Below, piece after piece: positions 1,050 through 59,595 of a stretch of 64,000 nucleotides of DNA. The stretch's first letter is position 1, and every line of letters begins with the position of its first letter. The notes beneath the pieces were generated by a model. The model searched no databases, had not been told where the DNA came from, and worked only from the letters and a program-made list of their open reading frames with translations. This DNA comes from Phycisphaerales bacterium (GTDB lineage Bacteria > Planctomycetota > Phycisphaerae > Phycisphaerales > JAGLTS01). Position numbers and translations under genes: made by a program. Where the stretch lies: positions 166-64,165 of the forward strand of contig JAGLTS010000060.1 of NCBI GenBank assembly GCA_023135165.1, in the 5' to 3' direction.

Positions 1050-1805
1050 GATGATTGCTCCTGGTTGCATGCCGGACTGATTCATTAATCCATCCATGCG
1101 ACGCACAGTGACTCGCCCATCAACCGGCTGTCTGTCTCGCCCTCATCCCAACCCCCCACGACGCCCCCCCGATCCCCAAGAGCCGATTCAGGACGAGCGA
1201 GAGAAACAACGGGCACGGACGGGCGACCTGTGTCGCCGCAACACCGACCACATGACGCCGAGCGTGGTTTGCTCGGGCAAGACCTCTCCGCAGTGTCGTC
1301 CCGCTTCGGCACCGCACACGCTCGTGCGTCAGTCCGGTGTCGCGCACACGCGCCTGCCGTGCCTGAGAGAGGTCGTCGAGTTGTCGGCTGGATTGCCGAT
1401 CAAAAGATCAGCTTGGCAACCAATAGCTGCCGATGAGAGCGGTATTCCAAGGATGAGCGATCAACGTCTCCAGCCATGCGCACCTGTCATCTGTGCGCCC
1501 TTACCAGTCTATCGTGCCTGACGTGTCAGTCAAGCCAAGAGGCCATACGGATGCTCTTTAGCTTGCCTCAACGTCGTCTCACGAACCTATTCGCACTGGG
1601 CACGGACCGGTTCCACAGTTCGCACGTAGCGACCATGGACAGATCGAGTCATCTCGATATGTCGTGCCGATCGGGAGGTGTTCGGCGGTGCCCCGCATGG
1701 CGCAGGTTTCCCAGGCCCTCGATGGAGCCGATGTGAAGCCGAGGTTCGTTGACGATCGCTGGATTTCAGGTGCGAGAAGGCTCGGCTTGGCGCGGCGCGG
1801 TGTTC

Positions 1806-13013: not shown

Positions 13014-13772
13014 ATGAGCGAGTTCATCTCAAAGCCGCGCAACGTCTTGCTCTCTCTTGTGTTGCTCTGCGCCGTCGTCATCACTGCAGCGCTCGTCACG
13101 CGCAACACGACACACGCACTGCTGCAAGACCCACCCGTCGACTCCCATGAGCTTGCCGCCGCGCTTGTTCGAGTCGGGTTCGATGTCGATGCGCTCGCCG
13201 CCGCCGGGCTTGACGGGCAGGATGTCGAAGATGTCGTCGATGCTGTGCGCGCTTACTTGACCCAGCACGATGGCGAGCTCGACGATGCCGATGACGCGTA
13301 TGCCCAGGCGCGCCGTGAAGCGGACATGCTCCGCAGGCTCATCCGAAGCGGATGCGCAACTGGCGAGCAGGTCAGTGCCTACGCGCAGGCCAAGGTCGAT
13401 CTGGACGATGCAGCGGCTGCACGCGATGATGTCCTCGATGCGATCTATGGCGTGGGGGTGGGCGTGGGGGTGGGGGCGCTGACTCAGACGCAGCAGAGCA
13501 TCCTCAGCACCATCCGCGCCAATGCCGCCTGGCGATCGCCGCACAACCTGCAGTTCCTCGCCGATGATTGGACGCAGCAGGAATGGGTCGATCTGCGCGA
13601 CGCACTGGCCAACGAACGCATCGCACAGAAGAACGGCGAATACGCCGATGCCGGCTGCCAGACGTTCCTTGCCGTCAAACGCGCCGATGCGGATGTCACC
13701 GCTGCTCGCACCAACCATGCGGCCTACATCAGTACCGTCGACTCGGCCTGGAATGATGCGATCGATGGGTAA
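13014..13772 (+). CDS. Exported helical hypothetical protein, divergent from the RHS gene
   Basis: GGAGG RBS, N-terminal hydrophobic segment, Ala/Asp-rich helices and host-like codon usage. Confidence 0.75.
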   Translation: MSEFISKPRNVLLSLVLLCAVVITAALVTRNTTHALLQDPPVDSHELAAALVRVGFDVDALAAAGLDGQDVEDVVDAVRAYLTQHDGELDDADDAYAQARREADMLRRLIRSGCATGEQVSAYAQAKVDLDDAAAARDDVLDAIYGVGVGVGVGALTQTQQSILSTIRANAAWRSPHNLQFLADDWTQQEWVDLRDALANERIAQKNGEYADAGCQTFLAVKRADADVTAARTNHAAYISTVDSAWNDAIDG

Positions 13773-16004: not shown

Positions 16005-16049
16005 CCGGCATACTGCATGAGTGGTTGTCGAGCGGTCATTGATTCTGCG

Positions 16050-18005: not shown

Positions 18006-18628
18006 TCTCACGGAGGTCGCCCACCTGCTCGGTGTGAGAAAACCCCGCCAGCGCATCTCGGGGACGTGCCGGCAGGGCTCGTGGGGGTCTCTAGAAGCGC
18101 GTACGCTACGGACGTTAGTTTGTCCCCGGACTTCCCAAGTGTCAAGAGACAATGTGCTGAATTCGGTCAGATAGCCGGGCTGATCGCTGGCGACACCCTT
18201 CTCTCGTCGCCGGCTCACAGAGCGACGGTCCCCTACCAGGGGAGGAGGTGCCGAGATCCTGGAGGGAATCCTGTTCCTACCGCGTATGGTTTCTGGGCGC
18301 GATGTGATTACCGAGCGGGACATCCGTCCAATCGTGGCTGAATTGGACTGGAACAAGCAGCGTAAGGCTTGGTGTGCTCTCTGCGACGGGGGCAGGCCAC
18401 AGGCTCTCTCCGCAGCCTTCTCGGCCACGCTCCACTTGAGCGGCCCCGATCCTTAACGTGTGGGACGTTTGTGCCTGCATCTGCCGCTCCCAGATGGTAA
18501 CATGCGTCTATACGCCTCGATAGACGCGCGGACTTTCCCATGCAGGCCACATGATGACTCACGTGCCAGCTGCCGAGGCCATCGTTCTTCAGGAATTCGC
18601 CAATGGCATTCGACCAGAGAGTGACAGT

Positions 18629-41164: not shown

Positions 41165-41165
41165 G

Positions 41166-43709: not shown

Positions 43710-45155
43710 TCATTCACCGACACGATTCGTGGACCACGAGACTAAGTAACTCACATCCTCCGGGGAGGGTTCGAGGATCCAGCTGCACATGCACGATTTA
43801 CCCAGCTGCTCTTTCCAGACCCTGCACCTCGCATGGGTCCTCGATCCGACTTTGTCAACGAACTCCATCGCCACATCGTATAATCGGCTCTCTGGGTAAT
43901 ACAGCACGACCGTAAGCAGTTCTGTCTTCATGCGTCCAACTGGTGAGAAGACAAGCTCACGCAGTGTCTTCTCTTTCCACCTCGCCCTGTACGTGAGGCA
44001 GACTGATACCGTTCCTGAGGTCTTGACAAGTATCTTGCCCAGATTCACCTGGGCGCTCACGGACTGACCTCGGGAGGTCAGCTTTTGTCCATTGCTTTCG
44101 CACGCAACTGCGGTTGTGCACTTGAGTTCTTCGATGCGTGCTCCCGACACGGCAAGCTCGAACCGTGTTGTCTTCGGCAGATAACGACTGCATAAGACAA
44201 ACCGCTCGACGACGAGCGGGAGTTCATTCGGGTCGTGAGCGTAGATCACAGTGACATTGCGAGCAACAACATCATATTTGCCGCGTCTCTGCAATGCCAA
44301 TTCGTTGACTCTCTCCTTATCGTCCGGATGGATCTCGAACACATGTGGTAGTGAGCGAGGCTCATCTTTGCCAACAGAACGGTATTTGAAACCGACGAGC
44401 GCAGCGCGATGATCGCTAGTGACGTCTGTATTAGACATGGCGATCAGTGTTTGCACATATTTCGCTTGCGTAGGGGTTCTTGGACAGCACTGCAACCAAA
44501 TCGCGTCGCACTTATCTGAGAAGAGCCAGTCCGTTATGGCGTTTCGTGCTTTCCACACCTCTCGATTCTCTGTGTACTGCTTGGTCTTCAAGTCCATACA
44601 CAATTGCGGTGCGCGTCTGCCACTTGCGTCCAGCATATCCGCGAGCCGAAACAGTCCGGCCAGACTCGGAGGAAAGACGACTTGGCCGTCAAATGAGCGA
44701 GATTCCTTGAGATTCGCGAAGTTACCATCGTCGTGACACTGAATCAGCGTGGCAATGAGTTCGCGATACTCAGCGTGTCTTATCAACTTGGCGAAGGCTT
44801 CATAGTCTCTGATCCATTCTGCGGCCTGGCGGCCATGAGGGAGACCGGTCCGAAGGAACGAATCGTCTGCTAGTTCCACCTTATCAATATCGTGCAAGGC
44901 GGCAGCGGCAGAGAGAACATACGCCGCGGCTGGGCAGCATGCCTCCTCAATCTTAGCTTGCTTGAACAACCTGCCAATATTGCGTTCGACTCGCTGGCAA
45001 TGCTCCCGACCCTGTTCGGTCTTGCCCTTCTGAAATGGCTGCAGTTCGCGCGCCCAAGACCATATCGTGTCAAGAGTCGCGCCAGCAACGTCTTGAACCT
45101 CACGAGCCCGGTCGCGCAGAAACTGACTGTGCAAATCGCCTGTGATCGTACGCAC
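43710..45155 (-). CDS. HD-domain protein with a C-terminal beta-rich domain
   Basis: EHCQRV, AALHDIDK, PHG, QCHD and RLADMLD. Confidence 0.78.
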   Translation of the reverse strand: MRTITGDLHSQFLRDRAREVQDVAGATLDTIWSWARELQPFQKGKTEQGREHCQRVERNIGRLFKQAKIEEACCPAAAYVLSAAAALHDIDKVELADDSFLRTGLPHGRQAAEWIRDYEAFAKLIRHAEYRELIATLIQCHDDGNFANLKESRSFDGQVVFPPSLAGLFRLADMLDASGRRAPQLCMDLKTKQYTENREVWKARNAITDWLFSDKCDAIWLQCCPRTPTQAKYVQTLIAMSNTDVTSDHRAALVGFKYRSVGKDEPRSLPHVFEIHPDDKERVNELALQRRGKYDVVARNVTVIYAHDPNELPLVVERFVLCSRYLPKTTRFELAVSGARIEELKCTTAVACESNGQKLTSRGQSVSAQVNLGKILVKTSGTVSVCLTYRARWKEKTLRELVFSPVGRMKTELLTVVLYYPESRLYDVAMEFVDKVGSRTHARCRVWKEQLGKSCMCSWILEPSPEDVSYLVSWSTNRVGE

Positions 45156-45189
45156 TCCTTGAGAGGCAGAGAGGCATCAGCACAAGCCC

Positions 45190-46320
45190 CTATATGGCCT
45201 GGGCGTAACCAGCCTCCGCCGGGCGTATCAAGCGCGAGTAGTGGGCACTACTATCGAGAATCATCTGTCGATTGGCAGGGCTATATGCCGCGACGCCCCA
45301 TGCGTTCTCCAGCTTTTCAAGTTGATCCAGCATCTCCGCCACAGGAGCATCTGCCAGGAAGATATCACGCTCCTTGCCACCGGATGATGCGAATATGTCT
45401 AGTGCTTTGATGCCGAGGCGGCCGAACGCGAGCGCTAGCAATGCAGGAACGAGCGAGCTCGTTCCCCAGCAGCAGTAGCGTGCAGCACGGACGGCGTGGC
45501 GATCGCCGTTGAAACTGATAGGAGCGCCGCCTGCCGTCTTCAGAGATCGAAGAACCTCTACGTCAGTGATACTATCACCGATGTAGGCACAGTGTCGCAT
45601 CGTCGTGCCCGATCGACTTGCGGCGTGCCGCAGTGCCATGGCCTTATAATCGCCACCCATCGCGCGCACACATCCGAGGATGGAGCGCGCGGACAGTGAT
45701 CGATTAGGAAGCTCGTGCCAGATGAGTCGCTCTAAACGGTGGATATGTTGGCGTGTTGACTGGGACAATCGTTGTTCAGAGGCCTCCATCGCATCAGCAC
45801 CAAGGGAGGGCAGTGGACCCGACGACAGGATACCGCGAGCAACGTGACGGACGCGAGAGGACTCGCCTTGGGACATCCTGATCGGTTCCCTAGGAATATC
45901 GGTGCAGTAGACATGTGACAAGGGAACGCCGACGGCATTTGCCACACGTAGCGCGATTGGACGATAGGTGACAGTGATTTCATACACTGGCAGGCCAGCA
46001 GAGGCAATGTGCGAAACCGCATCGGCGGCGTCATCAATGAGAGTTAATGGTTTCGTTGCTGCCCAGGCCGAAAACCAGTCTTCCGTAAACCCGTAGGCGT
46101 AGAGAAATGGCTGGATGAGCCGTAGCGTGTCGCCTGCGTTGTAGTCAGGCCGTCGATAGACGTAAGCGATATAATCGTCGAAGCGGCTAAGTGTAGTAAA
46201 CAAGGTATCCCCGTCTGGAATGACAGCACTCGCAAGTTCCTTAGCGTTGTCATTGACGACGGTTGTGCCTTCGCAATCTGTTCCCACGACGGCTGGGACT
46301 GGTTCGATCAGAGTGTCCAC
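45190..46320 (-). CDS. HAD-superfamily hydrolase (EhaR/COG4030-like)
   Basis: TDCEG...NDNA.EL, SRFDD, YNAGDTL.LI.PFL, YIGDSITD and ISFNG. Confidence 0.8.
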   Translation of the reverse strand: MDTLIEPVPAVVGTDCEGTTVVNDNAKELASAVIPDGDTLFTTLSRFDDYIAYVYRRPDYNAGDTLRLIQPFLYAYGFTEDWFSAWAATKPLTLIDDAADAVSHIASAGLPVYEITVTYRPIALRVANAVGVPLSHVYCTDIPREPIRMSQGESSRVRHVARGILSSGPLPSLGADAMEASEQRLSQSTRQHIHRLERLIWHELPNRSLSARSILGCVRAMGGDYKAMALRHAASRSGTTMRHCAYIGDSITDVEVLRSLKTAGGAPISFNGDRHAVRAARYCCWGTSSLVPALLALAFGRLGIKALDIFASSGGKERDIFLADAPVAEMLDQLEKLENAWGVAAYSPANRQMILDSSAHYSRLIRPAEAGYAQAI

Positions 46321-46810
46321 GGCGGCACCTCTGGGTTAGAAACATATATGGTTGTGTTCCGGCAGGCAGGCTCGTCGAATCGATCTGACGACGGAAAACC
46401 AAACTGTACGGGCGGGGGCGTAGTCGCGCGGCGATTGGCGGGCGCTGGGTTTGAATCATTGGATCTGGCGATCGTGCCGAATAGGCGGTGGGGTGGTGGG
46501 GGCGATCGCGGGGAGGAGAATGGAGAGGACAGGCAGCGGGGTAAATGAATGATGATGGTTGCTGTTGGCTGACTGACGTGTGGTACCGGCAGTGCAGGCA
46601 AGGGTGGAGCAGCGTGAGGATGGACGCTGTCGATGCGCGATCTCAGAGTACCTCCAATGCTGACGATGTCGTAGAGGAGGTGCATGGCTGTTGGGCATGG
46701 CCGCCGAAGCAAGATAGCATCTCCTCCGAATACTACTGTCACCATAAGGGCCCGAGGTGACAGATGTTAATAAACCCATCGACGACTAGGGGAACAGTGA
46801 CAGTCGTTGT

Positions 46811-47020
46811 CTACTGCTCCAGGAACTCTCGAAGGTCTTGGGCGGAAACTCTCCATTCTGTTCGTAGTCCCTTGATCCGGACCTTTAGGGCTGGCAGACG
46901 GCCGCTTCTCACCCATCGGGCCGCAGTTTCGTAGGATACATCCGCGCGCTGTGCCACGTCGCGTAATGACAACCGCGGATCGTGGTCGGTATCTGTTCGG
47001 GGCACTACATCAACTCGCAT
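46811..47020 (-). CDS. Excisionase-like HTH DNA-binding protein
   Basis: LSLRDVAQRADVSYETAARWVRSGRLPALK..WRVSAQDLREFL. Start uncertain. Confidence 0.75.
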   Translation of the reverse strand: MRVDVVPRTDTDHDPRLSLRDVAQRADVSYETAARWVRSGRLPALKVRIKGLRTEWRVSAQDLREFLEQ

Positions 47021-47450
47021 GTGACAATGAACTACTACAACATGTGACAGTATATGACATCGGCAGTGCCTGTCAATCTGTGTCAAGAGCATCAGTGCGA
47101 AACAGCAGTGCGACTGCGGGTGACTGGCCCAGAGCCCGCAGGTCGGAGAGGGGCTTGTGCGGCCTTGCTGGATCAAAGCAAGTGGTTGAGCTGCGAGAGG
47201 AAGATAGGAGTATGTTAGGCCACACGGCAAGTGCCGCTGTCCGGAGTGTGACAACGACAAGTGGGAGTGGCTTGGGGCAGTCCAAGTCAGCGTTCAGGGA
47301 CTTGAACAGTATCTCCTGGTGCGTTATCGATGTCGGAGGTGCGGCACCGAGTTTCTCGTGGAGGAGGCCAGCTGGAACTTGCCTGGAGATGTGACTAACG
47401 TCGTCGATGAGGTTGGCTGGGCGGGGCGATAGTACGCTCGGGATTCCAAC

Positions 47451-47774
47451 ATGGCTAGAGTATCCGCTCATTCGAAACGACGCTGCCCGCACTGCGGCAG
47501 CAGCCATTGGGTGTGGCTCGGTGCGGTCCCAACGACTCCTGAGGAGCTCGAGAAGTACCTGTTGACTCGGTACCGCTGCCAGAACTGTGGCCAAGAGTTC
47601 CTCGCGGAGGAGGCGAAGCGGGTGAGACTGGCCACAGAGACCAGTCGCTGTATCCACTGTGCAAGCAAGAAGATACAGAGGACGTCCAAGCCGGGGGCTG
47701 ACCTGGAGATCTACCAATGCCAGCAATGCCACGGGTACATGGCCCGAAAGCCCGATTCCAGCGATCCTGGCTAA
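47451..47774 (+). CDS. Double zinc-ribbon protein
   Basis: CPHC, CQNC, CIHC and CQQC. Confidence 0.65.
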   Translation: MARVSAHSKRRCPHCGSSHWVWLGAVPTTPEELEKYLLTRYRCQNCGQEFLAEEAKRVRLATETSRCIHCASKKIQRTSKPGADLEIYQCQQCHGYMARKPDSSDPG

Positions 47775-48006
47775 TGACCGACAGGCGAGTTGACGAGTGC
47801 CTGGGCAGGATGTGCGGTTTACCGTTGACCCAGGGGAGTGGCGACGGATAGACTTGTTCCAGACATTTGGAGATTGTCTGGGTCCGGCGTAGGTCACCAG
47901 ACGCGTCGCTGTTGGCGGCGTGCCCCGGCAACGCCCAAGGGCTGACTCGCACCAGGTGATGGTGTGTGTTGGCCCGTTATTTTTATAAACACAGCATCAC
48001 CAGTGC

Positions 48007-48951
48007 GTGCAGATGAAGCTCATGCCGAAGGGCGCACGCATGAAGGCACGGCGCAAGACCACGCCTGAACCGCAGGAATGCAGGTTGTCGCAGACACCCG
48101 TTGGGCAGTTCCATCGTGAGTGTTGCGCTTCTTCCGTCGTCGTGACGAAGTGGGGAGACCTCGACCCGTTGCTCGTTGGGATCGCGGCGCTGTGCACCCG
48201 ATTGGATCTCTCCACGAGGCAGCGTAATCAAGGTGCGAATGTCGAAGCAGGTGAGTTCCGGAAACTGCTGCAGGAGGCAGTCGATACTCTTCCTGGTACT
48301 TGTTGCGACTCAGATCGTATCCACGAGTTTGCGGCGCTGTTGGTGAGATTGATCTGCGACTCCGCCGCCGACAGTGACTCTGAGGGGAGTGAGTTCTTCA
48401 GCGAGGATCTAGGCGTTCGAGAGGACACCGTCTGGATCGAATGGAACATCAAGAGCAGACTGGACAAGCAGACCGATGTTGGGGCTCACAGAATCCCGCG
48501 CAAGCGGCTCGACGAATGGCTGCGTGCCCGACGCAGTGGGCTTGAACTCATCGTGGATGAGCGGCTTTCACATCTGGAAGTCCGACCGTCGTTCGAGCGA
48601 GCAGGCCGCAGGAGGCAGCTAATCCGCGTCATCTGGCCATCGCTTTCGTCCTCGCATAAGCGTTTGCTTGGCCTCCTCCTCCAGTCGTTCCGAACGCTGG
48701 CACCCATTCAGCAAGAGACGATCAGTGAGTACGTCCTCGGTCAGGACCAGAAGATCCCAGCTCTACTCCGACGCCCGGCAATCTACAAGGTCAAGAGCGA
48801 GCTGAACCAAACGCTGTTTGGCTTCCTCGGTGATGTCGTTGAGGCCGAGAAGGGCATGCAGCAGTACCTAGTCGCGCGCGTTCCTCGCTACGTCTGGATC
48901 AAACCGAGCCAGAGCGAATCGCGCCTCCTTCGGTCAGCGAGGCAGCGGTAG
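48007..48951 (+). CDS. Hypothetical protein, possible C-terminal winged helix
   Basis: Long ORF with RLLGLLL..ETISEYVLG..IYKVKSELN. Start uncertain. Confidence 0.55.
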   Translation: MQMKLMPKGARMKARRKTTPEPQECRLSQTPVGQFHRECCASSVVVTKWGDLDPLLVGIAALCTRLDLSTRQRNQGANVEAGEFRKLLQEAVDTLPGTCCDSDRIHEFAALLVRLICDSAADSDSEGSEFFSEDLGVREDTVWIEWNIKSRLDKQTDVGAHRIPRKRLDEWLRARRSGLELIVDERLSHLEVRPSFERAGRRRQLIRVIWPSLSSSHKRLLGLLLQSFRTLAPIQQETISEYVLGQDQKIPALLRRPAIYKVKSELNQTLFGFLGDVVEAEKGMQQYLVARVPRYVWIKPSQSESRLLRSARQR

Positions 48952-49254
48952 CGTGACTGTCGCAGTTGACATCCACCGTCGAGATCACAGAAGGCGGACA
49001 TGCCTACTCCAAGACGCAGCACCGGCCTCCTCGAAACGTCCGGGTATCTTGCCCCCCACTTCTGGGCGCTTCTCACCCCTTTGTGCACCGTCATCGCCGA
49101 CGAATGCGGCAAGACCCCAGAAGCTTGGAGAAAGATCGCTCAAGTTACCAGATTCACCTTGATGATCCCGCAAATCCAAGGCTTATACGTGTTGCCATGC
49201 CGGATGAAGCGTTTATCCGGCCCAGTCGACACCCCAATTAAGAGGAGCAGAACA

Positions 49255-49683
49255 ATGTCGACACGTAAGAGCTCGAAGAGCACCCCGCGAAAGAAGACAC
49301 CCAACCTCACCACGCGAAAGCGCACTGCGAAGAAGTCACCGTCTCGAAAGTCAACCGCCAAGACGACGACCGCGAAGAAAAAGACGGCAAGTAAGAAGAA
49401 GCCGCAACGACCTCGTCGACAGACTTCCGGTCCGTCGACGAGCAAGGACAAGCGTCTGGGAGTTCTCGCTGCTGCTGAGCAGGTGCTGCGGAGGAGCAAG
49501 ACGCCGATGCGTTGCAGGGAGATCATCGCCGCGATCCTCAAGCAGTCGCTATGGACGACCTCGGGCAAGACGCCGGAGGCCACGCTTCACGCCGCCATTA
49601 TCCGAGAGATTGCGAACAAGGGAAAGGACTCCCGGTTCGAGAAGACGGGTCGTGGGCTGTTCCGCGTGAAGAAGGGAGCGTAG
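49255..49683 (+). CDS. HARE-type winged HTH with a histone-H1-like basic tail
   Basis: K/T/S-rich N-terminus, then AAEQVL..PMRCREII..LW..GKTPEATL.AAI.REI..RFEKTGRGLF. GAGGAG RBS. Confidence 0.85.
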   Translation: MSTRKSSKSTPRKKTPNLTTRKRTAKKSPSRKSTAKTTTAKKKTASKKKPQRPRRQTSGPSTSKDKRLGVLAAAEQVLRRSKTPMRCREIIAAILKQSLWTTSGKTPEATLHAAIIREIANKGKDSRFEKTGRGLFRVKKGA

Positions 49684-49705
49684 ATCAGCATTGGCTGTCT
49701 CACCT

Positions 49706-49734
49706 GCCTCGGCATTGGCCGGGGCTTTCTCGTT
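49706..49734 (+). terminator. Putative intrinsic terminator
   Basis: GCCTCGGC-ATTG-GCCGGGGC hairpin followed by TTTCTCGTT. Confidence 0.55.
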
Positions 49735-49989
49735 CGAGGGCCTTGAACAGCCTGCAACGTCCAATGTCAATGATGCGGATTATGAAGAACTCGAACAGGC
49801 ACTCGACGAAGACCCGATTCCCACGGCACCAGACAGTCTCGGCCCGAAAGCCTCGGCGTGAACGGGCAAGATGATTGGCAAGGCCGCCAGCGGCATCTGG
49901 GAGGCGGGCATCGCAGGCGCTGGAGCGCTGCAAGCCAAAGCGCTCGCCAAGTATTATGCTCTGGAGGGGCTGATGGCAGGAGCGCGACG

Positions 49990-50229
49990 GTGAATCAGCG
50001 ATGTGCCTACTACCGCGTTGAGACCAAGCAGCTAGAAAGCAACCGGATTCGGCCAGATCGACAACGGCCGGCTCCCCAGATCATCAGATGCCCTTGGTGT
50101 TCACACAAGCACTCACCCGTCCATCGAGATGACACGAGGGTTGTCGGCGGTGGCAATCTGCTCAAGTGCGAAGGCGATTGCCCAGCGAAGTGCCCGCTGA
50201 CGCCCGAGCAACTCGCGGGTGCTTCTTGA
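49990..50229 (+). CDS. Small Cys-rich protein
   Basis: GTG after AGGAG; CPWC and C..DCP.KCP. Confidence 0.45.
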   Translation: MNQRCAYYRVETKQLESNRIRPDRQRPAPQIIRCPWCSHKHSPVHRDDTRVVGGGNLLKCEGDCPAKCPLTPEQLAGAS

Positions 50230-50245
50230 TGGTGGAGGAGCCACG

Positions 50246-50473
50246 GTGGAAGACTTGAAGTTTGTTCGGCTCATTTCGTGCAAAGGGGCATCGGATCAGG
50301 CGGTCTTTCTGACCAAGGAGGAATACGAGAACCTCATCAAGCGTTTTGATGACGGGGAAGGGCGTGTCGCAATCCGCTATCAACGAACACCCGAAGATCG
50401 ACAAGTACATTACTTGCGGATAGATCTGCGAGAATGGGGCATCGACAGCGAGAACGACATGCCTGCCGATTGA
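50246..50473 (+). CDS. Small hypothetical protein
   Basis: GGAGGAG RBS followed by GTG. Confidence 0.55.
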   Translation: MEDLKFVRLISCKGASDQAVFLTKEEYENLIKRFDDGEGRVAIRYQRTPEDRQVHYLRIDLREWGIDSENDMPAD

Positions 50474-50973
50474 CGCTTGACCCCGTGGGAGCAGCTCATC
50501 TAAGGGGATTCCTGTCGAATATCGACCGCAACGGGGCGGACGCGCTGGCCAAGCTGCCATTCGAGCCAAGGGCCAGGTTTCACAGGCGCAAAGTCAGGGC
50601 TCGCTCCGGCGACTCCTGCCACTCGCTGCGGTATTGCTCCGTCGGTGATTCGGGTTCTAGGTAGCCGCCCGTGAGCATGAGGAAGTACGGCGTCGCCGTC
50701 TTGGTTGCCCAAGCAATGCCTACGAGACGGTTTTCTCCTTATAAGTGCTGCGACTTGGACGTCTTACGGATGAACAAAGAAAGGTACTTACCGGGGTAGC
50801 TCTGGGGGTATATCCCTCCGTCACGATGGGTCCGTCTTCAGGGGCCGAAGCCATGTCACCTGGAGGCAGAGAGGACCTCTTCGTTGACATCGTCGTCCCC
50901 AACTCGATCCAGCCACCTCAGCGCTGTCCGTCGCATGCAGGCTTCGGCAACCCAGCAGGAAGAGCAGTAGGCC

Positions 50974-51150
50974 ATGGCCTGGAAGCACGACATCATGCAG
51001 TTGTCCGCTGATGTGCTCCGTTTTGTCTCTCGGGGTGCGATGCTCATCGCCGTGATCGCTCTCTCTCTAGCTGGGACCTACGTGATCGTGAAGCTTGCCT
51101 TTTTCGCTGCGCGTTTTCTGGACCGAACACTCTTTGCAGAACCGTGGTGA
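50974..51150 (+). CDS. 58-aa membrane peptide
   Basis: MAWKHDIMQLSADVLRFVSRGAMLIAVIALSLAGTYVIVKLAFFAARFLDRTLFAEPW. Below the ORF-track cutoff; stops 2 nt before the next ATG. Confidence 0.6.
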   Translation: MAWKHDIMQLSADVLRFVSRGAMLIAVIALSLAGTYVIVKLAFFAARFLDRTLFAEPW

Positions 51151-51152
51151 CC

Positions 51153-51677
51153 ATGGATGCCTACGACGACAACCAGTTGGATTCGCAGCAGCGACCGCGT
51201 GTACTTCGGCGCGTCGTGCGGGTCACTGTCGCCGAGGATCCGGAGACCGGCCTGCCAATGGTTATCCCGGTGGAGCACGAGCGTCTCGCCTTCGCCACCG
51301 ATGGCGCTCTGGAAACCACTCTCGTTCACCATCAGCGATTCTACAAATGTGGCTGCGACACCAGGAACCCTCCGGGGAGCCGCTGCGTCGAGTGCGGCGG
51401 CGTCTCCTGCGCCCGCTGCCAGGAGCGCTTCGGCCGCTGCTGTCTCTGCCTCTCGCCGGTCTGCCCGGAGCACGCCAAGCTTCTCTCTCTCGGTGGCCAA
51501 CGACAACAGGTCGTCTGCCGACAGTGTCTTGATGCCATTCAGAGACGTCGGCGTTTGAAGGGGCTGGTTCGCACAGCCCTCTCGCCCTTCATCCGTTTCA
51601 CCCCCACGACCCCCACCTCCACGACCCCCAAGAGATCCGCCTCGAGTTTTCCTGGGAGTCAACGAGGTACGCCATGA
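51153..51677 (+). CDS. Multi-Cys zinc-finger protein
   Basis: CGC, CVEC, CARC, CCLC, CPEH and CRQC. Overlaps the ATPase start by ATGA. Confidence 0.75.
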   Translation: MDAYDDNQLDSQQRPRVLRRVVRVTVAEDPETGLPMVIPVEHERLAFATDGALETTLVHHQRFYKCGCDTRNPPGSRCVECGGVSCARCQERFGRCCLCLSPVCPEHAKLLSLGGQRQQVVCRQCLDAIQRRRRLKGLVRTALSPFIRFTPTTPTSTTPKRSASSFPGSQRGTP

Positions 51678-53488
51678 CTCCTCACCACATCGCTACAGGT
51701 AGCTTCACTCGCCGAGTCCGGTCAGCTGCCTCACAGCCCAGGGGATCCGGGCTTGGCGCTGGTGGACAGCGCGACCTGCTGAGTGATGTTGCCTACTGTC
51801 TGGAGCACGATCTGTGCCGCGACCGCTTTGGCCACCGCTGCCTGGAGCTCTACGGCTTAGGCAGCGCTGATTCACAGATCGCTGCCGAACTGCATCGCCG
51901 TGCCGCTCGACACCAGTACGAGGCGGCGCTTGGCATGGCTGGACCCTTCCGTGATCCGCATCTGCCAAGTCGCGAGTTGATTCTGAGCGCTCGAGACGGA
52001 GCGCCGAGCGCGGGCATCCCCTTGTCACTGCTCCTGGCCGGAACCCTTCTCATTGCCACGACCGGCGGAGGGAAGACGACGCTGATTGAATTCCTGCTGC
52101 TGCAGATCACCGCTTTCGTTGATTCCATCTGGATGACTGATCTCTACAAGAAGCGGCTGCGGCACCTGCGACCTTTCTTGGGTCGTGTGGGCAAGGACCT
52201 GGTGATACTCAACCATGAGACACTTCGTCTCAATCCCTTGCAGGCGGAGGGCTGCGACCCCCGCACGCACTTGACGCTTGTCGTCGATCTCCTGCAGCGC
52301 TCGCTCGATCTACCCCCACGAGCTGTGACGATCATCCGGCAAGCTTGTCTGGAACTCTACGATCGTTTCGGCGTGTTCCGGCAGGAGCGGCCGCTGTATC
52401 CAACGCTCTTTGATCTCTACGAGCATGTTCGGAGTGCACCCCGGCTGAACCCTGCGGCGAGAGAGGCGATCCTTGACAGGCTGGGAGCCCTTCTCACTTC
52501 GCTCTCGGCCGAGTGCCTGGCTTACAGGAGAGCGTGGTCGCCTCTTGACCTATCTCGTCGCATGATCGTCTTCGAGCTGCGCGGACTGAGTGAGCCCGCC
52601 AAGTCGCTGGTTCTCAGCCACTGCATCTTCAGCGTCTTCCATGCCGCCTTGGAACGGGGCCGACGGGCATCGGGCTTGGAGCAACTGATCGTTCTGGAAG
52701 ACGCTCAGCGAATCCTGGCTGGCAGAGCTTCGACCAGCGCCGATTTGCCTCCTCTTGAAGAGCTCGTGGGGGTTGTGCGTGAGTCGGGACGCGGTCTGCT
52801 CTTCAGCGCCCAGACCATGGCAGGCTTGCCGCGCGGCATCGCGGCCAACACCAACCTCAAGATCATGGGAGCACTTGGCCGGTCGGAGGATTACGCCGCC
52901 CTCGGTGGCGACATGGGGATGGATCGCGAGCAGATTGCCTGGGCTAAACAGAACTTGCGTCCTGGACGCTTCATCGGCCAAGTGGGTCTGGGCAACTGGC
53001 GGAGACCGTTCCTCCTGGAGATCCCGCCAGTCCATGTGCCGGCAACGGTGAGCGACGAAGATGCCAGAGACAGCGTGCAAGCCCTGGCGGATCTGGAACT
53101 GGTCCCTGCGACCGAGTTCATGAATTGGACGCCGTATGCGTCGGTCTCTGTCGACACCAACCAGTCGCCCGCGCCAGCCGCAAGCAACGGTGATGCGGAG
53201 GAGGGACCGGACACGGGCGGGAATGATGATCTGGAACTGGATGAGGCGGAGCTGCGATTCCTGCGCGCCGTTGTGGAGCATCCAGGCGAGCCCTCCAGCC
53301 ATTACGCCAAGTATGCCCATCTGAACACGAGCCGAGCCGCCGCTATCCGCAAGCGGCTGGTGGAGCGTGGTTACCTGCGCCTTCATTCGGTGGCGACCGG
53401 TCGGCGAGGTCGTAAGTCGCTCGTCGTTGAACCGCTTGAGCCCGCCCTCCGTGGAGTTGAGGCCAACGCAGACCAGGGAGGCAACTGA
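51674..53488 (+). CDS. HerA/FtsK/VirD4-like ATPase with a C-terminal winged helix
   Basis: ATTGGGKTT, LNPL, PTLFDL, IVLEDAQR and RESG..FSAQ. Confidence 0.8.
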   Translation: MTPHHIATGSFTRRVRSAASQPRGSGLGAGGQRDLLSDVAYCLEHDLCRDRFGHRCLELYGLGSADSQIAAELHRRAARHQYEAALGMAGPFRDPHLPSRELILSARDGAPSAGIPLSLLLAGTLLIATTGGGKTTLIEFLLLQITAFVDSIWMTDLYKKRLRHLRPFLGRVGKDLVILNHETLRLNPLQAEGCDPRTHLTLVVDLLQRSLDLPPRAVTIIRQACLELYDRFGVFRQERPLYPTLFDLYEHVRSAPRLNPAAREAILDRLGALLTSLSAECLAYRRAWSPLDLSRRMIVFELRGLSEPAKSLVLSHCIFSVFHAALERGRRASGLEQLIVLEDAQRILAGRASTSADLPPLEELVGVVRESGRGLLFSAQTMAGLPRGIAANTNLKIMGALGRSEDYAALGGDMGMDREQIAWAKQNLRPGRFIGQVGLGNWRRPFLLEIPPVHVPATVSDEDARDSVQALADLELVPATEFMNWTPYASVSVDTNQSPAPAASNGDAEEGPDTGGNDDLELDEAELRFLRAVVEHPGEPSSHYAKYAHLNTSRAAAIRKRLVERGYLRLHSVATGRRGRKSLVVEPLEPALRGVEANADQGGN

Positions 53489-54006
53489 TGCGGGGAGGCT
53501 TCCTGCACAACACGGTCCTGATTACACCAATCGAGCAGTTCTTCTGCGAGCTTGCCGCTTGTGTCTCGAGGGAACATCCGATTCGCCCGGGTCGAGGTGC
53601 GCCTGCGGTTGACCTCTTCATTGAACTTCAGCACGAGCGGATCGTGGTGGAAGCGGAGCTCACGGCAAGGCGAATCACCGTCGCCTTGAAGAAGGCCCAG
53701 ACCCTCGAAGCGACCCATCTTCTCATCATCACCCCCACGAGCAGGACCGCTGAGAGGGCGAGGTACTTGCTGGTCGAAGCGGATCCCAAATGGTTGCCAA
53801 AGCGTCTTTGGATTCTGCCGCTGGGGCCTGCATTGCAAGCACTTCGGGATTGTTATCTGCATCCACCAGTCGCGAACTACACAACCCCAACCCCCACGAC
53901 CCCCACCTCCACGACCCTCACGAGTTCCACGAGTCCCACCCTCGCGAGTCCTCAAGTAGCCGCAGCGGATCTCTTCACCGGCAAGCAGAGGAGGACTCGG
54001 CAATGA
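53488..54006 (+). CDS. PD-(D/E)XK nuclease-like protein
   Basis: H..REHP..AVDLFIE..RIVVEAE; parallels the C-terminus of the 41166 ATPase. TGATG coupling. Confidence 0.6.
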   Translation: MRGGFLHNTVLITPIEQFFCELAACVSREHPIRPGRGAPAVDLFIELQHERIVVEAELTARRITVALKKAQTLEATHLLIITPTSRTAERARYLLVEADPKWLPKRLWILPLGPALQALRDCYLHPPVANYTTPTPTTPTSTTLTSSTSPTLASPQVAAADLFTGKQRRTRQ

Positions 54007-54269
54007 TCATCCGCTGGCGGCGCATCCTGGGACTGCTGATCTTCGCAGCGATCGTGACGATCGTGGTGAGGAAGTGGGATCGGCTCGGCCTTGCCTTCGG
54101 ATCGATCACGCTCACCGAACTGGGATACCGCTACGGACGTGGAGGTCTGCCCGATCAGCTGACGCTGCTGGTGTGGGCACTCGTGCTCGTTCTCGTGGGG
54201 GTGCTCATTGGGAAGGCCGCCTGGGGTGGTCACGCGACGCGCCAAGGTCGCCGGGGGACTTCGAAGTGA
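54003..54269 (+). CDS. Small two-TM membrane protein
   Basis: MIIRWRRILGLLIFAAIVTIVV and LLVWALVLVLVGVLI. ATGA overlap and GAGGA RBS. Confidence 0.7.
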   Translation: MIIRWRRILGLLIFAAIVTIVVRKWDRLGLAFGSITLTELGYRYGRGGLPDQLTLLVWALVLVLVGVLIGKAAWGGHATRQGRRGTSK

Positions 54270-54317
54270 TTCTCGTGGGGGTTGTGTCGGTTTGGATTCA
54301 TGTCAAGGAGATTCATC

Positions 54318-54572
54318 ATGAGACGAGTATTTGTGAACGGACAAGAAGTGACTGTGCCTGTGGACTACGACGGTTGCATTGACGCGGACGAACTGCGTGA
54401 ACTCGCAGGCATCGAGCGCAGCAGGCCGTTGCTGCTCAAACGGCTGGATGGCGGTAACGAGGTCATCAATCCTGGCGAGACGGTATCGGTGCGTCCGGGC
54501 CAGCACTTCCAGGACATGCCGCTGCACAAGCGAGGGGTCGGCCATGAGACCATTGCCGCATCTGCTGCATGA
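54318..54572 (+). CDS. Ubiquitin-like (beta-grasp) protein with a C-terminal extension
   Basis: VFVNGQEV..DELRELAGI..LLL..V.PGE.V.V..G.HF..HKRG plus 11 further residues. AAGGAG RBS. Adjacent to E2 and JAB-E1 genes. Confidence 0.75.
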   Translation: MRRVFVNGQEVTVPVDYDGCIDADELRELAGIERSRPLLLKRLDGGNEVINPGETVSVRPGQHFQDMPLHKRGVGHETIAASAA

Positions 54573-54927
54573 CCTGGAGGCGCTCAGTCTGGGCTATCGC
54601 TTGTCTGTCGCTCGCGATTACCGTTCGGTGATCGCCCACGGCTTCAAGCTGCCGCCTGGATACGGCAGGTCAACCGTTGATGTGCTTTTTGAGGTGCCCC
54701 GTCGCTATCCGCGTCGGCCCCCAGGTGTGGCTTCGAGGGTGTACCTGCCACCTGACCTGCGCTTCCACGGTCGCACGCTCAAAGACGTGCACCCGGGAGT
54801 TACGCCAGGCTGGGGCAACTGGGCCTGGCTCTGTTACGAGTGGATTCGTTGGGATCCTCGGACAGATGACCTGATCAAGTTCCTGGAGATGGTCCGGGCG
54901 GATCTGACGAATCCATCCACGAAGTGA
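54544..54927 (+). CDS. Prokaryotic E2/UBC-fold protein
   Basis: FKLPPGY..VDVLFEVP..YP..PP and WAWLC..WDP..DDL.KFL. Contains a single Cys. Confidence 0.78.
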   Translation: MRPLPHLLHDLEALSLGYRLSVARDYRSVIAHGFKLPPGYGRSTVDVLFEVPRRYPRRPPGVASRVYLPPDLRFHGRTLKDVHPGVTPGWGNWAWLCYEWIRWDPRTDDLIKFLEMVRADLTNPSTK

Positions 54928-54946
54928 CTCAAGGAGGATACTTACG

Positions 54947-56767
54947 ATGAAAGAGCATTCAGAAGAGCAGTGTTCAGCACTGAAAGACCAGGTGATCGTG
55001 CGGATCGGCAAGTGCCACAGCGACATCCTGACGGAGCATCTGCGGCGGGATCCCCACACGGAGCAGTTCGCGTTCCTGCTGGCGAGCCGGGTAGAGGGTC
55101 CCGAACTGACGATTCTCATCGTCCGAGATGTGCTTCTGCCCGGCCCAGGTGACCTCAGCGAGCAGAGCGCGGGGGGCGTGGCTCCAACGCCTGCCTTCCA
55201 ACGTCTTGTGTACACCATGGCCGAGGCCGTGGGGCTCAACATCATTGATGTGCACACGCACCTCCATCCGGGACGACCTCGCTTCAGCAGCATTGATACG
55301 ACGGTTGCTGCCGCCAACGGCCGTTACATCGGCGAGCACTTTGAGGATGATCGGATAACCCACGTCATGATCGTCTTCGGCAACGACGTGCGGTTCCACG
55401 ATGCGGTGATCTTCGACCGATCCACAGGCAAGCGCTGCAAATGTGAGATTGATCATGGAGGAGGGAGCGACGAACTGATCTGCGGATCGAGTCATGCCCG
55501 AGCTGCTCGCCGCTGCACGGGGGTTCGGTGTCGCGGGCAGGCTCGGCAGGAGCGCAGATGCACTCGCAGGGCTCGTGGGGCTCGTGAAGGTCGTGGGGGT
55601 CGTGGAGGTGGGGGTCGGTACCGCACGATTGATCGGATCGAGATCCTGGGCCGGGGGATGGAGTTGCGGGAGACGAAGGCACGGAGAGAAGCTGTGGGCA
55701 AGAAGGGAGAGCTGTCGGAGCGATTCGCTCGGCAGAGGCTCGTTCCCGGCTGGGAGCAGGAGTGCCTTGCGAAGCAACGGATCGTGATCGTGGGTGCGGG
55801 CGGTAACGGGGCACCGCTTTACCAGACGCTGCTCTCGCTTGGCGCAGGATCGGAGGGGTGGCTGGCAGTTGTTGATCCGGATGTGATCGAAGCCTCCAAC
55901 TTGCCCCGGATCCCCTACGCAACGACCGATGTCGTCGCAGAGACGGGGGCCGCATCGGCGCAGGATCTTGCGGGACTCGTGGGAGTGGGGGGTGTGGGGG
56001 TCGTGGGTGTCGTGGGGGTGGGGAAGGTGGAGATGGCGGCGCGATACGCCCGAGTGCGTGCCCCTGGGACACGAGTGCTGACATATGCAGTCGAAGCAGC
56101 GGATGAGGCGGTGCTGGCGCGGATCAAGGAAGCGACGCTGCTGATTGGAGCCGCCGACAACGATGGGGTGAGGGAGCTCTTGAACGAGTGCTCGGTTCGC
56201 TATCTCATCCCGTACATTGATCTGGGCTGTGACATCCAGGTTGATGATGCAGGTTGGATCGTTGGTGGCCAGGTGCGTGTAGTCATCCCCGGTGAGACGG
56301 CTTGCCTGCTTTGCTGTGATGGGTATGACCCAGCGCAGGCAGCACTGGACACGATGGATCCGAAGAGACGGGCCGAGCATGCTTCGATCGGGTATGTGCG
56401 TGGGTCTGATGCTCAGGCCCCTACTCCCTCGATCGCCAACCTCAATGCGATGACCGCCCAGCTCGGCGTCGCGGCTGTGCTGTCGCTGGTGCACGGCCCT
56501 GAGTTCGGTGCCTGGGATTACGTCCACTTCGATCCGGTGAAGGGGGAGATGGTCTCGGCGAGCAGCAAGCCCCGGCCGGATTGCCCGCTGTGCGGTGCTC
56601 ATGGTCTTCTTGGCGCTGGGGACTGTGGCGACGAATCGGAGGAGGCTAACGCCGCCGCCGCAGATGACATAGCCGATGGAACTGCGATGGCGCCATGGCC
56701 GGTTGGATCGTCGCTGTCTCATGAGGCAGCGGGAGCTACCGAGGAACAAGAGCATGACGAGTGCTGA
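54947..56767 (+). CDS. JAB peptidase-ThiF/E1 fusion
   Basis: JAB: E.FAFL, DVHTH, FSSID. E1: RFARQ, VGAGGNG, DPD.IEASNLPR, GKV, AADN..R, CLLC, CPLC. Confidence 0.87.
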   Translation: MKEHSEEQCSALKDQVIVRIGKCHSDILTEHLRRDPHTEQFAFLLASRVEGPELTILIVRDVLLPGPGDLSEQSAGGVAPTPAFQRLVYTMAEAVGLNIIDVHTHLHPGRPRFSSIDTTVAAANGRYIGEHFEDDRITHVMIVFGNDVRFHDAVIFDRSTGKRCKCEIDHGGGSDELICGSSHARAARRCTGVRCRGQARQERRCTRRARGAREGRGGRGGGGRYRTIDRIEILGRGMELRETKARREAVGKKGELSERFARQRLVPGWEQECLAKQRIVIVGAGGNGAPLYQTLLSLGAGSEGWLAVVDPDVIEASNLPRIPYATTDVVAETGAASAQDLAGLVGVGGVGVVGVVGVGKVEMAARYARVRAPGTRVLTYAVEAADEAVLARIKEATLLIGAADNDGVRELLNECSVRYLIPYIDLGCDIQVDDAGWIVGGQVRVVIPGETACLLCCDGYDPAQAALDTMDPKRRAEHASIGYVRGSDAQAPTPSIANLNAMTAQLGVAAVLSLVHGPEFGAWDYVHFDPVKGEMVSASSKPRPDCPLCGAHGLLGAGDCGDESEEANAAAADDIADGTAMAPWPVGSSLSHEAAGATEEQEHDEC

Positions 56768-57047
56768 GCCCAACTCGAGCCGGTTTGCCGAGGAGTTGCT
56801 CGAACAAGCCGAAGCGATCGAACGAGCCGAGCATGAGATCCGTCAGGAGGTGCTGCGCTTGGCCCGTCAGGGCGATGTTGAGGACATCGAGCGCCTGGTG
56901 TTGCGTTGGTGCGAGGGACCGGTTGAGAAGGTACTCGCCCAGCCTGAGAGAAGCCCGTCCAAGTGCCAGAGGAGGGCTACACGCCGCAAGGACGCGGCTG
57001 GACGGCCCCCACGGCCCCCACGGCCCCCAGGTGCCCCCACGGCTTGA
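56754..57047 (+). CDS. Small helical hypothetical protein upstream of the recombinase
   Basis: Overlaps the E1 end. Acidic helices with a repeat-derived Pro/Arg tail. Confidence 0.55.
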   Translation: MTSAEPNSSRFAEELLEQAEAIERAEHEIRQEVLRLARQGDVEDIERLVLRWCEGPVEKVLAQPERSPSKCQRRATRRKDAAGRPPRPPRPPGAPTA

Positions 57048-57178
57048 AGGTGGCCCACGGAGCCCCCTTCCGGCGGCTTGTAGGCGTTCGTCGGGTAGGT
57101 CCTTGACTTCCTGGGCGAACTAAGCGTCTTGGTAGCCAAACGGCCCTCACGAATTGGGCTGAAACCGGAGCGATCGAG

Positions 57179-58741
57179 ATGCGCGTTGTGGCGATGTTCA
57201 GGGTGTCTACCGAGCAGCAGGCAGAGCAGGGAGCCTCGCTCGACGCCCAGGAACGCCACTACCGACAGCTTGCCCAGCGGGAGAGATGGGAGACGGTCGC
57301 CACCTTCCGCGGCTGCGAGTCCGCCACTCAGGCTGCGAAGGAGAGGGACGTTCTGCAGCAGGTGTTGGCCTGCATTCGGGCCGAAAAGCCGGACGCAGTC
57401 TACATCCATGAGCAGTCGCGCCTGACGCGTGGGGATGAGCTGGACGCCGCTCTGCTCTTCCGCGAGTTACGGGAGCAACGAACCAAGGTCATCATAGGCG
57501 GTGTGGTACGAGACCTAGAGAGCATCGATGAACGCTTTATGCTCGGCATTCAGAGCTTGGTCGATCGGACTGAGTCGGAGCGGATCCGCGAGCGCATGGA
57601 CCGGGGCAAGCGCGAGAAGGCCAGACAGGGAAGACGAGGAAGCGGCTTTGCCCCCTATGGCTACCACAATCCACTTCGCGGTGATCCGGAACACGGCAAG
57701 CTGAAGATGGTGTTGGAGGAGGTAGCAGTCGTTCGACGCATCTTCGAGCTTGCTGCCAAAGGGCTGAGCACCCTGAGCATCGCTCGGACTCTGAATGCTG
57801 AGAGCGTCCGCGCTCCTCGCGGAGGTACTTGGGGAAAGACGACGATCAGGCGAATCCTCGACAATCCGAGCTACCTCGGGGTGCTGGCCAGCTTTGCCTG
57901 GAAGCCGATGAGGAAAGGAAGCCGCTGCTACAAGCTGGACCTGGGGAGCACGGACGCCATCATCGTCCCCGATGCACACGAAGCCATCATCGATCGCGAG
58001 CTCTGGGACGCGGTCCACGCCCTGCCCAAGGTTAGGCAAACGAAGCGGGCCTACATGCTGACAGGGCTACTCCACGTCGACGGCCGCCGTCTGGCCTGCG
58101 ACTCGTCACGTGGTCGGTCCTTCTACCGGAGCCGTGATGGGCGGGGTCCTGGTCCCTGGCTTCCTGCCAAGGAAACTGAGGATGCCATCTGGAAGGCATT
58201 CGTCTCCTTGACAACTGGTCCTGAGTTCGTGGCGAGCATGATCAAGACGGCGCAGCGGCGACAGCCGCTCCAGGAGTTGAACGAGCAGATCCGCAGGCAG
58301 GAGAAACAGGTCCCTCGTTTGCGAAGGCGCCTGGACCGCCTCATCGACATGCGAGCCGACGGCGAGATCTCCAAGGACGTGTTCCAGCACAAGAGCCGTG
58401 AGGCGGAGGAAGCGCTGAAGAGCGCCGAGGAAATACTCCGTGAGCTCCGACGACGGATTGCTTCCACCGATAGCTCACAGGCGGAACGCGTGGTCAAGGC
58501 AATCAGGCTCCTGATCGGTGATCCTCGCAGACTCAGCGTCAAGGAAAAGAAGAACCTACTTCACGCCATGGTGAACCGCATCGACATCCAAGCGGAGCGG
58601 GTCATCCGCACGCAATCTCGCAACTCAAAGGGCAGCTTCGGACCGGGACCGCATGCCAAGTGGATCGTCAGAGACATCACCTTCGAGCTCCAACTGCCCG
58701 GCGATGACCGTAGCCGAGGAGTGGACACATCTTGCTCATGA
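57179..58741 (+). CDS. Large serine recombinase (integrase)
   Basis: RVSTEQQ..SLDAQ, SRLTR, APYGY, IARTLN, ILDNPSYLG, HEAII..W and a coiled coil. The stop codon is supplied by comM sequence across attR. Confidence 0.93.
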   Translation: MRVVAMFRVSTEQQAEQGASLDAQERHYRQLAQRERWETVATFRGCESATQAAKERDVLQQVLACIRAEKPDAVYIHEQSRLTRGDELDAALLFRELREQRTKVIIGGVVRDLESIDERFMLGIQSLVDRTESERIRERMDRGKREKARQGRRGSGFAPYGYHNPLRGDPEHGKLKMVLEEVAVVRRIFELAAKGLSTLSIARTLNAESVRAPRGGTWGKTTIRRILDNPSYLGVLASFAWKPMRKGSRCYKLDLGSTDAIIVPDAHEAIIDRELWDAVHALPKVRQTKRAYMLTGLLHVDGRRLACDSSRGRSFYRSRDGRGPGPWLPAKETEDAIWKAFVSLTTGPEFVASMIKTAQRRQPLQELNEQIRRQEKQVPRLRRRLDRLIDMRADGEISKDVFQHKSREAEEALKSAEEILRELRRRIASTDSSQAERVVKAIRLLIGDPRRLSVKEKKNLLHAMVNRIDIQAERVIRTQSRNSKGSFGPGPHAKWIVRDITFELQLPGDDRSRGVDTSCS

Positions 58742-58746
58742 TCGGC
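58706..58746. other. attR junction (P arm GGACACATCTTG, CT core at 58735-58736)
   Basis: Reverse complement of the attL arm; comM resumes at CTC ATG ATC GGC. Confidence 0.9.
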
Positions 58747-59595
58747 CCGGCGGGGACGGGCAAGACGATGCTCGCCAAGGCGCTGCCCGGCATCCTGCCT
58801 CCCATGACGCGACACGAAGCGATCGACGTCACACGCATCTGGTCAACCGTCGGCCTCATCAGCGACGGCGAGTCGATCGTTCGACGCAGACCCGTCCGTG
58901 CGCCGCACCACACCGCATCGGCCGTCGCCATCGTCGGCGGCGGGTCGATTCCCAGGCCCGGTGAGGTGAGCCTGGCGCACCACGGCGTCCTGTTCCTCGA
59001 CGAGTTGCCCGAGTTCGGCAGGGGCGTCCTTGAAACGCTTCGTCAGCCGCTCGAAGACCGCACCGTCACCGTGGCGCGTGCGCATTCGACCGCACGCTTC
59101 CCCGCCGGCTTCATGCTTGTCGCGGCGATGAACCCCACCGCGCGCGGCGACCTGCCCAGCCCGAACGATACAGCTGGCCTGCGCGAGATGGAGCGGTACC
59201 TGGGCAAGCTGAGCGGACCGTTGCTGGATCGCATCGACATTCACATCGAAGTCCCGCGCGTCCCGTTCGCAACACTGCGACGCCGGGCAGGCGGCGCGAC
59301 GACCGCCGAGCTGCGCGAGCGCGTCCTCGCTGCACGCCGGGCGCAACGAGAGCGTCAGGGCGAGCAGCCCAACGCATTCCTCACAGGCAAGCAACTCAAC
59401 ACGCTCGCAGCGTTTGACGGTGAGGCGGAGCGTCTGCTCGGTCAAGCGATGACGGAGATGCGCCTTTCAGCACGCGCCTACGACAAGATCCGCCGAATCG
59501 CACGCACGATCGCCGACCTTGGCGGCGAGGAGGCGATCGGCATGTCGCATGTCGCCGAGGCAGTGCAGTACCGTCTGCTGGACCGGCAGTTCTGA
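58735..59595 (+). pseudogene. comM: comM 3' part (AAA+ domain)
   Basis: MIGPAGTGKT, RAPHHTAS, PGEVSLAHHGVLFLDELPEF, LRQPLE, SGPLLDRID and ARTIADL. Confidence 0.93.

Follow-up and report, generated by a model that had tools for sequence, protein, structure and literature searches.

A lineage-specific family of G-rich tandem repeats in a Phycisphaerales genome and a hot-spot of its exact copies in a ubiquitin-like gene module

Repeat sites in the module

The 64,000-nucleotide stretch analyzed here (the window, G000:C77:166-64165) belongs to a metagenome-assembled genome of a Phycisphaerales bacterium (G000, the source genome; 3.9 Mb, 62.7% GC, 119 contigs, 92% complete). It carries a 54-kb island (window ~4600-58727) that interrupts comM/YifB. 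Within this island lies a module encoding, in order, a Cys-rich small protein, an ATPase, a nuclease-like protein, a small membrane open reading frame (ORF), multi-ubiquitin, E2 and a fused JAB-E1 protein. A short G/C-skewed repeat occurs here as tandem arrays (A1 to A5) and as single exact copies of an 11-mer, ACCCCCACGAG. The original prediction, made from the letters of the window, had reported arrays at 51600, at 53880 (with 28 identical bases) and at 57002-57043, two inverted arrays inside JAB-E1, and outlying sites at 18072-18088, 13449-13476 and 1147-1182, all of which are present. To these we add the five single exact ACCCCCACGAG copies between the arrays and the extension of the family genome-wide. 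The features, in window coordinates, are as follows.

51144-51677: Cys-rich (zinc-finger-like) gene, host of array A1
51600..51633, + strand: array A1 with its C-rich strand on +, encoding part of the Cys-rich protein's C-terminal extension; 28 nt identical to A2
51674..53488, + strand: HerA/VirB4/FtsK-superfamily ATPase of HerA/VirB4 fold, its C-terminal winged helix assigned confidently
52312..52322, + strand: ATPase gene (LPPRA), one exact ACCCCCACGAG that aligns to homologues without indels
52763..52773, - strand: ATPase gene (ELVGV), one exact 11-mer that aligns to homologues without indels
53488-54006: nuclease-like gene, a label from the original prediction and sequence inspection (0 Pfam matches)
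53731..53741, + strand: nuclease-like gene (ITPTS), one exact 11-mer that aligns to homologues without indels
53880..53955, + strand: array A2, with units that drift toward ..CACGAG in the 3' direction; part of the nuclease-like gene's C-terminal extension
54003-54269: small membrane-protein ORF
54192..54202, - strand: single exact 11-mer in the membrane ORF (LVGV)
54272..54282, - strand: single exact 11-mer in the spacer that separates the ubiquitin-like gene from the membrane ORF
54318..56767, + strand: multi-ubiquitin, prokaryotic E2 family E and fused JAB-E1 genes (Pfam PF14452, PF14462, PF00899), hosts of A3 and A4
55433..55618, + strand: insert 1, JAB domain, 62 aa, ends uncertain by a few codons
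~55563-55617, + strand: array A3, G-rich, at the 3' end of insert 1
55931..56008, + strand: insert 2, E1 (ThiF) domain, 26 aa
~55967-56023, + strand: array A4, G-rich, in insert 2
56754-57047: ORF with array A5 at its 3' end
57002..57043, + strand: array A5 (RPPRPP), with the rotated variant unit ACGGCCCCC
18078..18088, - strand: sixth exact 11-mer, directly past the tyrosine integrase gene
13449..13476, + strand: hexamer-period family member (GVGVGVG) in ORF 12984-13772
1147..1182, + strand: intergenic host array outside the island

Nine separate sites fall within 51600-56019 (4.4 kb), against 0.115 expected per 5 kb, and the densest 5-kb window elsewhere holds 3 sites. Five of the nine are the single exact copies, four of them in coding DNA. 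After removal of the arrays, these four coding copies compare with 0.11 expected from synonymous shuffles (0/5000 shuffles); any 11-mer reached four copies in 0/500 shuffles and any 10-mer in 4/500. Outside the arrays the mismatch spectrum of the module comprises 5 exact sites, 0 with one mismatch and 1 with two mismatches versus 2.2 expected, and 6 of the 11 copies of the 11-mer in the genome lie inside the island. Three of the four coding copies align to homologues without gaps; no homologue of the membrane ORF was found, hence no such comparison applies at 54192..54202. At 52312, LPPRA is the family consensus and is spelled with rare synonymous codons, the closest fetched homologue (at locus L213) differing at two synonymous positions. 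At 52763..52773, the Val that the motif requires is Ala in 25 of 29 homologues. The arrays of the module have variants of 28, 24 and 21 nt in common, in both orientations; elsewhere 0.07% of distant array pairs share 24 nt or more and neighbouring arrays share at most 13 nt. This hot-spot of exact copies written into codons is the new part of our observations.

As the original prediction had supposed, both JAB-E1 segments are insertions and not conserved linkers, and both are missing from 95/95 homologues that have both anchors. Between the first anchors there are 79 residues here versus 15-23 in these homologues, and between the second 43 versus 17-19. The key residues of JAB and E1 are intact despite the inserts, and in a structure model both folds are retained with the inserts as low-confidence loops. 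The further claim that the two inserts are homologous as wholes failed, as their tails aligned with a score of 14 against a shuffle mean of 16 (P=0.85) and the repeat units alone match. With unrelated tails, and with no hairpin fold in insert 1 (folding z=+1.5), the inserts do not represent one mini-element. Clear terminal repeats or target duplications were seen at neither insert. At the other genic arrays, three aligned homologues of the Cys-rich protein stop at about SPFIR, so that the A1 extension is absent from them, and the A2 extension is absent from the single aligned homologue of the nuclease-like protein.

The repeat family in the source genome and its relatives

Genes were called with a hexamer-based caller made for this analysis, and counts of genic and intergenic sites are approximate. 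ACCCCCACGA was the most over-represented 10-mer of the source genome, with 103 copies observed versus 12.8 expected from an order-5 Markov model and 13 for a reversed-pattern control. This exceeds chance. About 110 arrays were found by scanning, 42 inside confidently called genes and 68 elsewhere; arrays are thus depleted in genes (42/110 vs 83% coding). Their hosts include dapA, fabD, uvrB, a DinG/YoaA helicase gene, a DnaJ-family gene, a moaB-like gene and ispH. Units of 9 nt dominate, with others of 6, 8, 10, 11 and 12 nt, and 46 of 170 perfect 9-mer tandem repeats contain CCCCA (background 1.6%). The consensus unit translates as PTT, PPR, PHD, RGG, VGV or WGS, all six frames being stop-free and used, and genic arrays use the two strands near-equally (22 vs 24). 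Spacings that are multiples of three alone were found in 36/42 genic arrays versus 30/68 arrays elsewhere (P=2e-5).

The arrays of UvrB, DapA, FabD and MoaB occupy loops that are already length-variable (compared with 19, 19, 19 and 6 orthologues, respectively), and motif-free loops of greater length occur in several UvrB orthologues. Orthologues of FabD and MoaB already show PHD/PHE and RGGD (1/6) at the array site; judging from these alignments, both arrays start from compatible codons. The 10-mer shows no coding excess in host coding DNA outside the module (9 observed versus 11-21 in shuffles). Taken with the homologues that do not have the segments and the rare synonymous codons, the use of all six frames bears out the earlier suggestion of a signal at the level of DNA. 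The lists of top 12-mers and 14-mers of the source genome are dominated by a further long intergenic repeat family and a palindromic family around AAAGCTTT (about 35 sites, e.g., C103:3302).

Among 40 relatives compared with the source genome, the motif dimer scored 39 in one, G027, and 0-6 in the other 39, against 78 in the source genome. Exact dimers numbered 33 versus 0-4 in 300 genomes of the phylum, a draw that did not contain G027, and the 10-mer count of the source genome was the highest among 401 genomes of the order. A donor genome with a density like that of DNA uptake sequences was sought among these 401, and none exceeded 103 copies. In G570 (L221-L240), the 10-mer has 81 copies, largely inside a dispersed intergenic element of its own with fixed context (14/20 fetched sites). 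The arrays of G027 are in-frame insertions of 96, 27, 33, 45 and 30 bp at sites that are empty in four congeners, with no clear terminal repeats and no clear target duplications. At one G027 site (a single case), an exact 11-mer occupies an ungapped position where the congeners differ. GGGCA-type heptamer arrays and 21-mer tandem repeats occur alongside the 9-mer arrays of G027 (L027-L046). Overall, the repeats, which share a CCCCCAC core, form a G-rich tandem family that is specific to the lineage and occupies protein loops, tails and spacers in frame.

Origin of the copies

Paralogous sites provide a before/after series. One such site has 0 to 4 units across 12 copies, and in one family of repetitive extragenic palindromic (REP) sequences 6 copies are filled with GTGGGGG versus 26 that are empty, the fill position having no G-run of its own and a few bases of microhomology. 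Among paralogue indels of 6-30 nt, 31/164 contain the core versus a background of 2% (some rows are one family repeated), and 21 of these 31 are not simple flank duplications. Slippage alone can therefore explain expansion, not all gains, and in those other cases the word appears to have been imported from another copy. Three candidate sources were rejected. No RVT_1 match for a reverse transcriptase acting as writer was found in G000, G027 or three congeners, although divergent or unassembled enzymes would escape such a search; MutS was present in 5/5 of the same genomes, contrary to a loss of mismatch repair; and for a phage vector, two patterns gave 4 and 20 viral-contig matches, the four being one unrelated context.

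The repeat is likely self-copying DNA of a known kind, and we lean towards short-patch copying plus slippage, filtered by reading frame, as its mechanism. Template switching or gene conversion, with another copy as the source, would write a word of 7-11 nt at a position that is a near match or offers 2-4 nt of microhomology; the word would then grow by unit duplication. Units with lengths that are multiples of three would survive in genes; the frame bias is observed, and selection, as its presumed cause, would act solely by removing gene-breaking copies. The module at 51.6-57 kb may be a local clone, its neighbouring copies having acted as templates in either orientation and codons with near matches having been converted to the exact 11-mer. 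Four features follow from such local copying: the variants that arrays have in common, the use of both orientations, the all-or-none mismatch spectrum and the fact that the word is the commonest repeat of the host. Several observations speak against this account. Local copying is visible in this 4.4 kb alone, a restriction that the account does not explain; arrays outside the module do not cluster (P=0.3-0.8) and neighbours there share <=13 nt. The 11-mer shows no single-copy enrichment in host coding DNA (0 vs 0-3 per strand), and its perfect form ending in G is absent from the module's own arrays. Around the five single copies, sharing between flanks stays at the chance level (P=0.15), even though copying could leave longer patches behind. 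The F2 paralogue family does not polarise gains against losses, MutS is present, and no RVT_1 match was found in G000 or G027. The miniature mobile repeat of the original prediction holds loosely: short words are gained at unseeded sites, but a shared body, a hairpin in insert 1 and clear terminal repeats or target duplications were not seen.

Alternatively, the exact 11-mer could be a selected protein-binding site around the ATPase gene, clt/TRS-like or an operator array, with the arrays as expanded sites. This would account for the exactness of the copies and their position around a winged-helix ATPase, and the four exact coding copies against 0.11 expected, the 6/11 genome copies within the island and the confident C-terminal winged helix on the adjoining HerA/VirB4 fold all favour it; TraB recognises 8-bp repeats via a C-terminal helix-turn-helix (HTH) (PMC5365140). 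Weak repeated words also occur near homologous ATPases (a 9-mer five times at L129, an 11-mer three times at L181), which may be sites of their own or chance. We nevertheless consider it rather unlikely, because comparable density was found at 0/13 homologous ATPase loci (best log10 P of -7 to -8 versus -16), one exact 10-mer was present in 793 kb of 91 JAB-E1 loci, and the island's second HerA module is without such a motif. Furthermore, no ATPase homologue was found with this query in the array-rich G027. The ATPase has no FtsK-gamma match (absent in 30 members, with weak MarR/HTH_24/TrmB matches to the winged helix). A nested or polar arrangement of the nine sites was not significant, their orientations being mixed (P=0.25), and the leading-strand bias of arrays (52:32) is that of the bare 7-mer (340:211), which also removes the polar loading sites for a translocase put forward in the original prediction. 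A combined version, in which the 11-mer is a putative recognition site that the element wrote into its own genes around a HerA-type winged-helix translocase and the same word is inserted de novo chromosome-wide by sequence-specific writing, seems a little less likely again; if true, a DNA-transfer or self-tagging system would have left a 'junk' repeat family as its footprint.

That the arrays are flanks or footprints of REP/REPIN hairpins moved by Y1 (TnpA-REP), or of a mini-element like Rickettsia palindromes, is improbable. The source genome does have 48 hairpins of the form GGTCCGCC-NNN-GGCGGA (e.g., C41:87744-87760), with at most 2 per genome in the 40 relatives. The G-run word lies within 45 nt of 33/48 (background 3%), 18 have a GTGG foot, four Y1_Tnp genes are present, and in one paralogue family the hairpin is present or absent right beside the motif. 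However, the hairpin was not found in the window, G027 has arrays yet neither such a hairpin nor a Y1_Tnp match, 0/4 Y1 genes are flanked by the GGTCCGCC hairpin (in an assembly that is 92% complete), and the window inserts share no body, insert 1 failing to fold. Two Y1 genes (G000:C57:49848-50144 and C51:1554-1847) are flanked by other REP/REPIN families, and some REPINs have gained the G-run word. Retention of the arrays as G-quadruplex (G4) or i-motif regulatory elements, in DNA or mRNA, is more improbable still. Predicted G4Hunter maxima reach 2.0-2.5 in the five module arrays and heptamers of Nostoc and Xanthomonas form G4 in vitro (PMC4692102), whereas four G3+ tracts occur in 3/5 arrays, single copies score 0.9-1.3, strand use within genes is near-equal and sites are not conserved in orthologues or congeners; by this prediction, some of the arrays have plausible G4 potential and the single copies do not. 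An assembly artefact or chance from GC content is hardly tenable. The genome is metagenome-assembled in 119 contigs and support comes from assembled contigs, perhaps from the source sample: a Logan contig of run X1 (9.8 kb, different assembler) equals window 49000-58800 with 0 differences and even depth, yet X1 may be the same sample as the source and thus not independent, and the module falls outside the coverage of runs X2 and X3. Against an artefact stand this identical stretch, the frame bias in genes, the same phenomenon in G027 and the reversed-pattern control.

The island and comparison with known systems

The termini of the island are short inverted repeats adjoining the HNIL/LMIGP junction; a serine recombinase gene lies at its right end. 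No close relative of the element showing an earlier state was found, the best proteins being 46-54% identical, and an Rfam search of window 45000-59000 gave 0 structured-RNA matches. Two HerA/VirB4-like ATPase modules are present (window 39282-43163 and 51144-56767); the top NCBIfam match of the first ATPase is CedD, below cut-off. ATPase modules, an orphan N4/N6 methylase and the Ub-E2-JAB/E1 operon recur, variously combined, in Planctomycetota loci L186, L219, L175, L181, L190 and L213, and such loci may constitute an undescribed family of integrative elements. A SIR2-like protein followed by a short Argonaute-like protein (window 27450-30712) is probably a defence pair. The island also encodes a caspase-domain protein, a tyrosine integrase, a STAND-like NTPase and a HARE-HTH protein with a Lys/Arg-rich tail (15030-18005, 35054-37258 and 49000-49683), and, as labelled by inspection, a long Rhs-like gene (6379-12792) and a second C-terminal Rhs-like copy with a different tip (22457-24496).

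For the origin of 6-11 nt G-rich tandem repeats, which are known in several bacteria, the present genomes offer a natural before/after series of empty and filled paralogues, empty congener sites for G027 and an operon with both single copies and arrays. The 'writing of the word' can here be separated from the 'expansion of the word', and both are testable. A stop-free 9-mer is, moreover, a simple route to new loops in essential enzymes, and if the hot-spot were a cluster of binding sites, the repeats would be linked to DNA transfer.

In the mostly open-access literature, we found no paper on the motif or on such repeats in Phycisphaerae. The ATPase modules and N4/N6 methylase of the window resemble the layout of the Thermus TdtA element. 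As with TraB clt/TRS and TdtA (PMC3429521, PMC5365140), an FtsK/HerA-superfamily ATPase with a C-terminal HTH lies on an integrative element, and the likeness extends to the nuclease-like gene and the N4/N6 methylase. Unlike clt/TRS, the sites lack polarity, do not recur in homologous elements and adjoin an ATPase without an FtsK-gamma match; binding is putative. Like REP/REPIN sequences (GT[A/G]G foot) and Rickettsia palindromic elements (RPEs), both known in frame (PMC3733652, PMC6006769; guide-directed cleavage, PMC8266576), the repeats occupy housekeeping genes in frame, and hairpins with a GTGG foot are embedded in arrays of the source genome. In contrast to REPs and RPEs, the window inserts are not palindromic and have no shared body, hairpin or adjacent Y1 transposase. 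As with HIP1 (PMC4390886), exact words have been put into coding sequence by substitution. Unlike HIP1, the word is non-palindromic and local rather than genome-wide in coding DNA, and a matching methyltransferase was not identified.

Elhai and colleagues reportedly described, in 2008, cyanobacterial small dispersed repeats (SDRs) nested in heptamer arrays. In common with SDRs, which are also cited in PMC3116915, very short words are gained at new sites and small hairpins are nested in tandem arrays; in contrast, the nested hairpin is REP-like and specific to the source genome, and the mobile word is 7-11 nt long.

The closest parallels we discuss are found in Nostoc/Anabaena and Xanthomonas, as long G-rich simple sequence repeats with the units GGGGA[T/C]T (STRR) and GGGAATC, respectively (Rehm et al. 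2015, PMC4692102), and a strong excess of G patterns has been described in the planctomycete Isosphaera pallida (PMC4060949). Like the Nostoc and Xanthomonas repeats, the family comprises about 100 short G/C-skewed arrays per genome on both strands, with variable unit number and, here by prediction, a tendency towards G4; it is mostly intergenic (62% in the source genome, 68% in Anabaena) (PMC4692102). In contrast to those heptamers, the main unit is 9 nt long and stop-free in all frames, and the host belongs to a different phylum; being stop-free, the unit can enter genes in frame. A 4.4-kb hot-spot with exact copies in codons further appears to set the source genome apart from Nostoc and Xanthomonas as described in PMC4692102. 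The family is accordingly a variant of these repeats rather than a member of STRR, because its main unit is not a heptamer.

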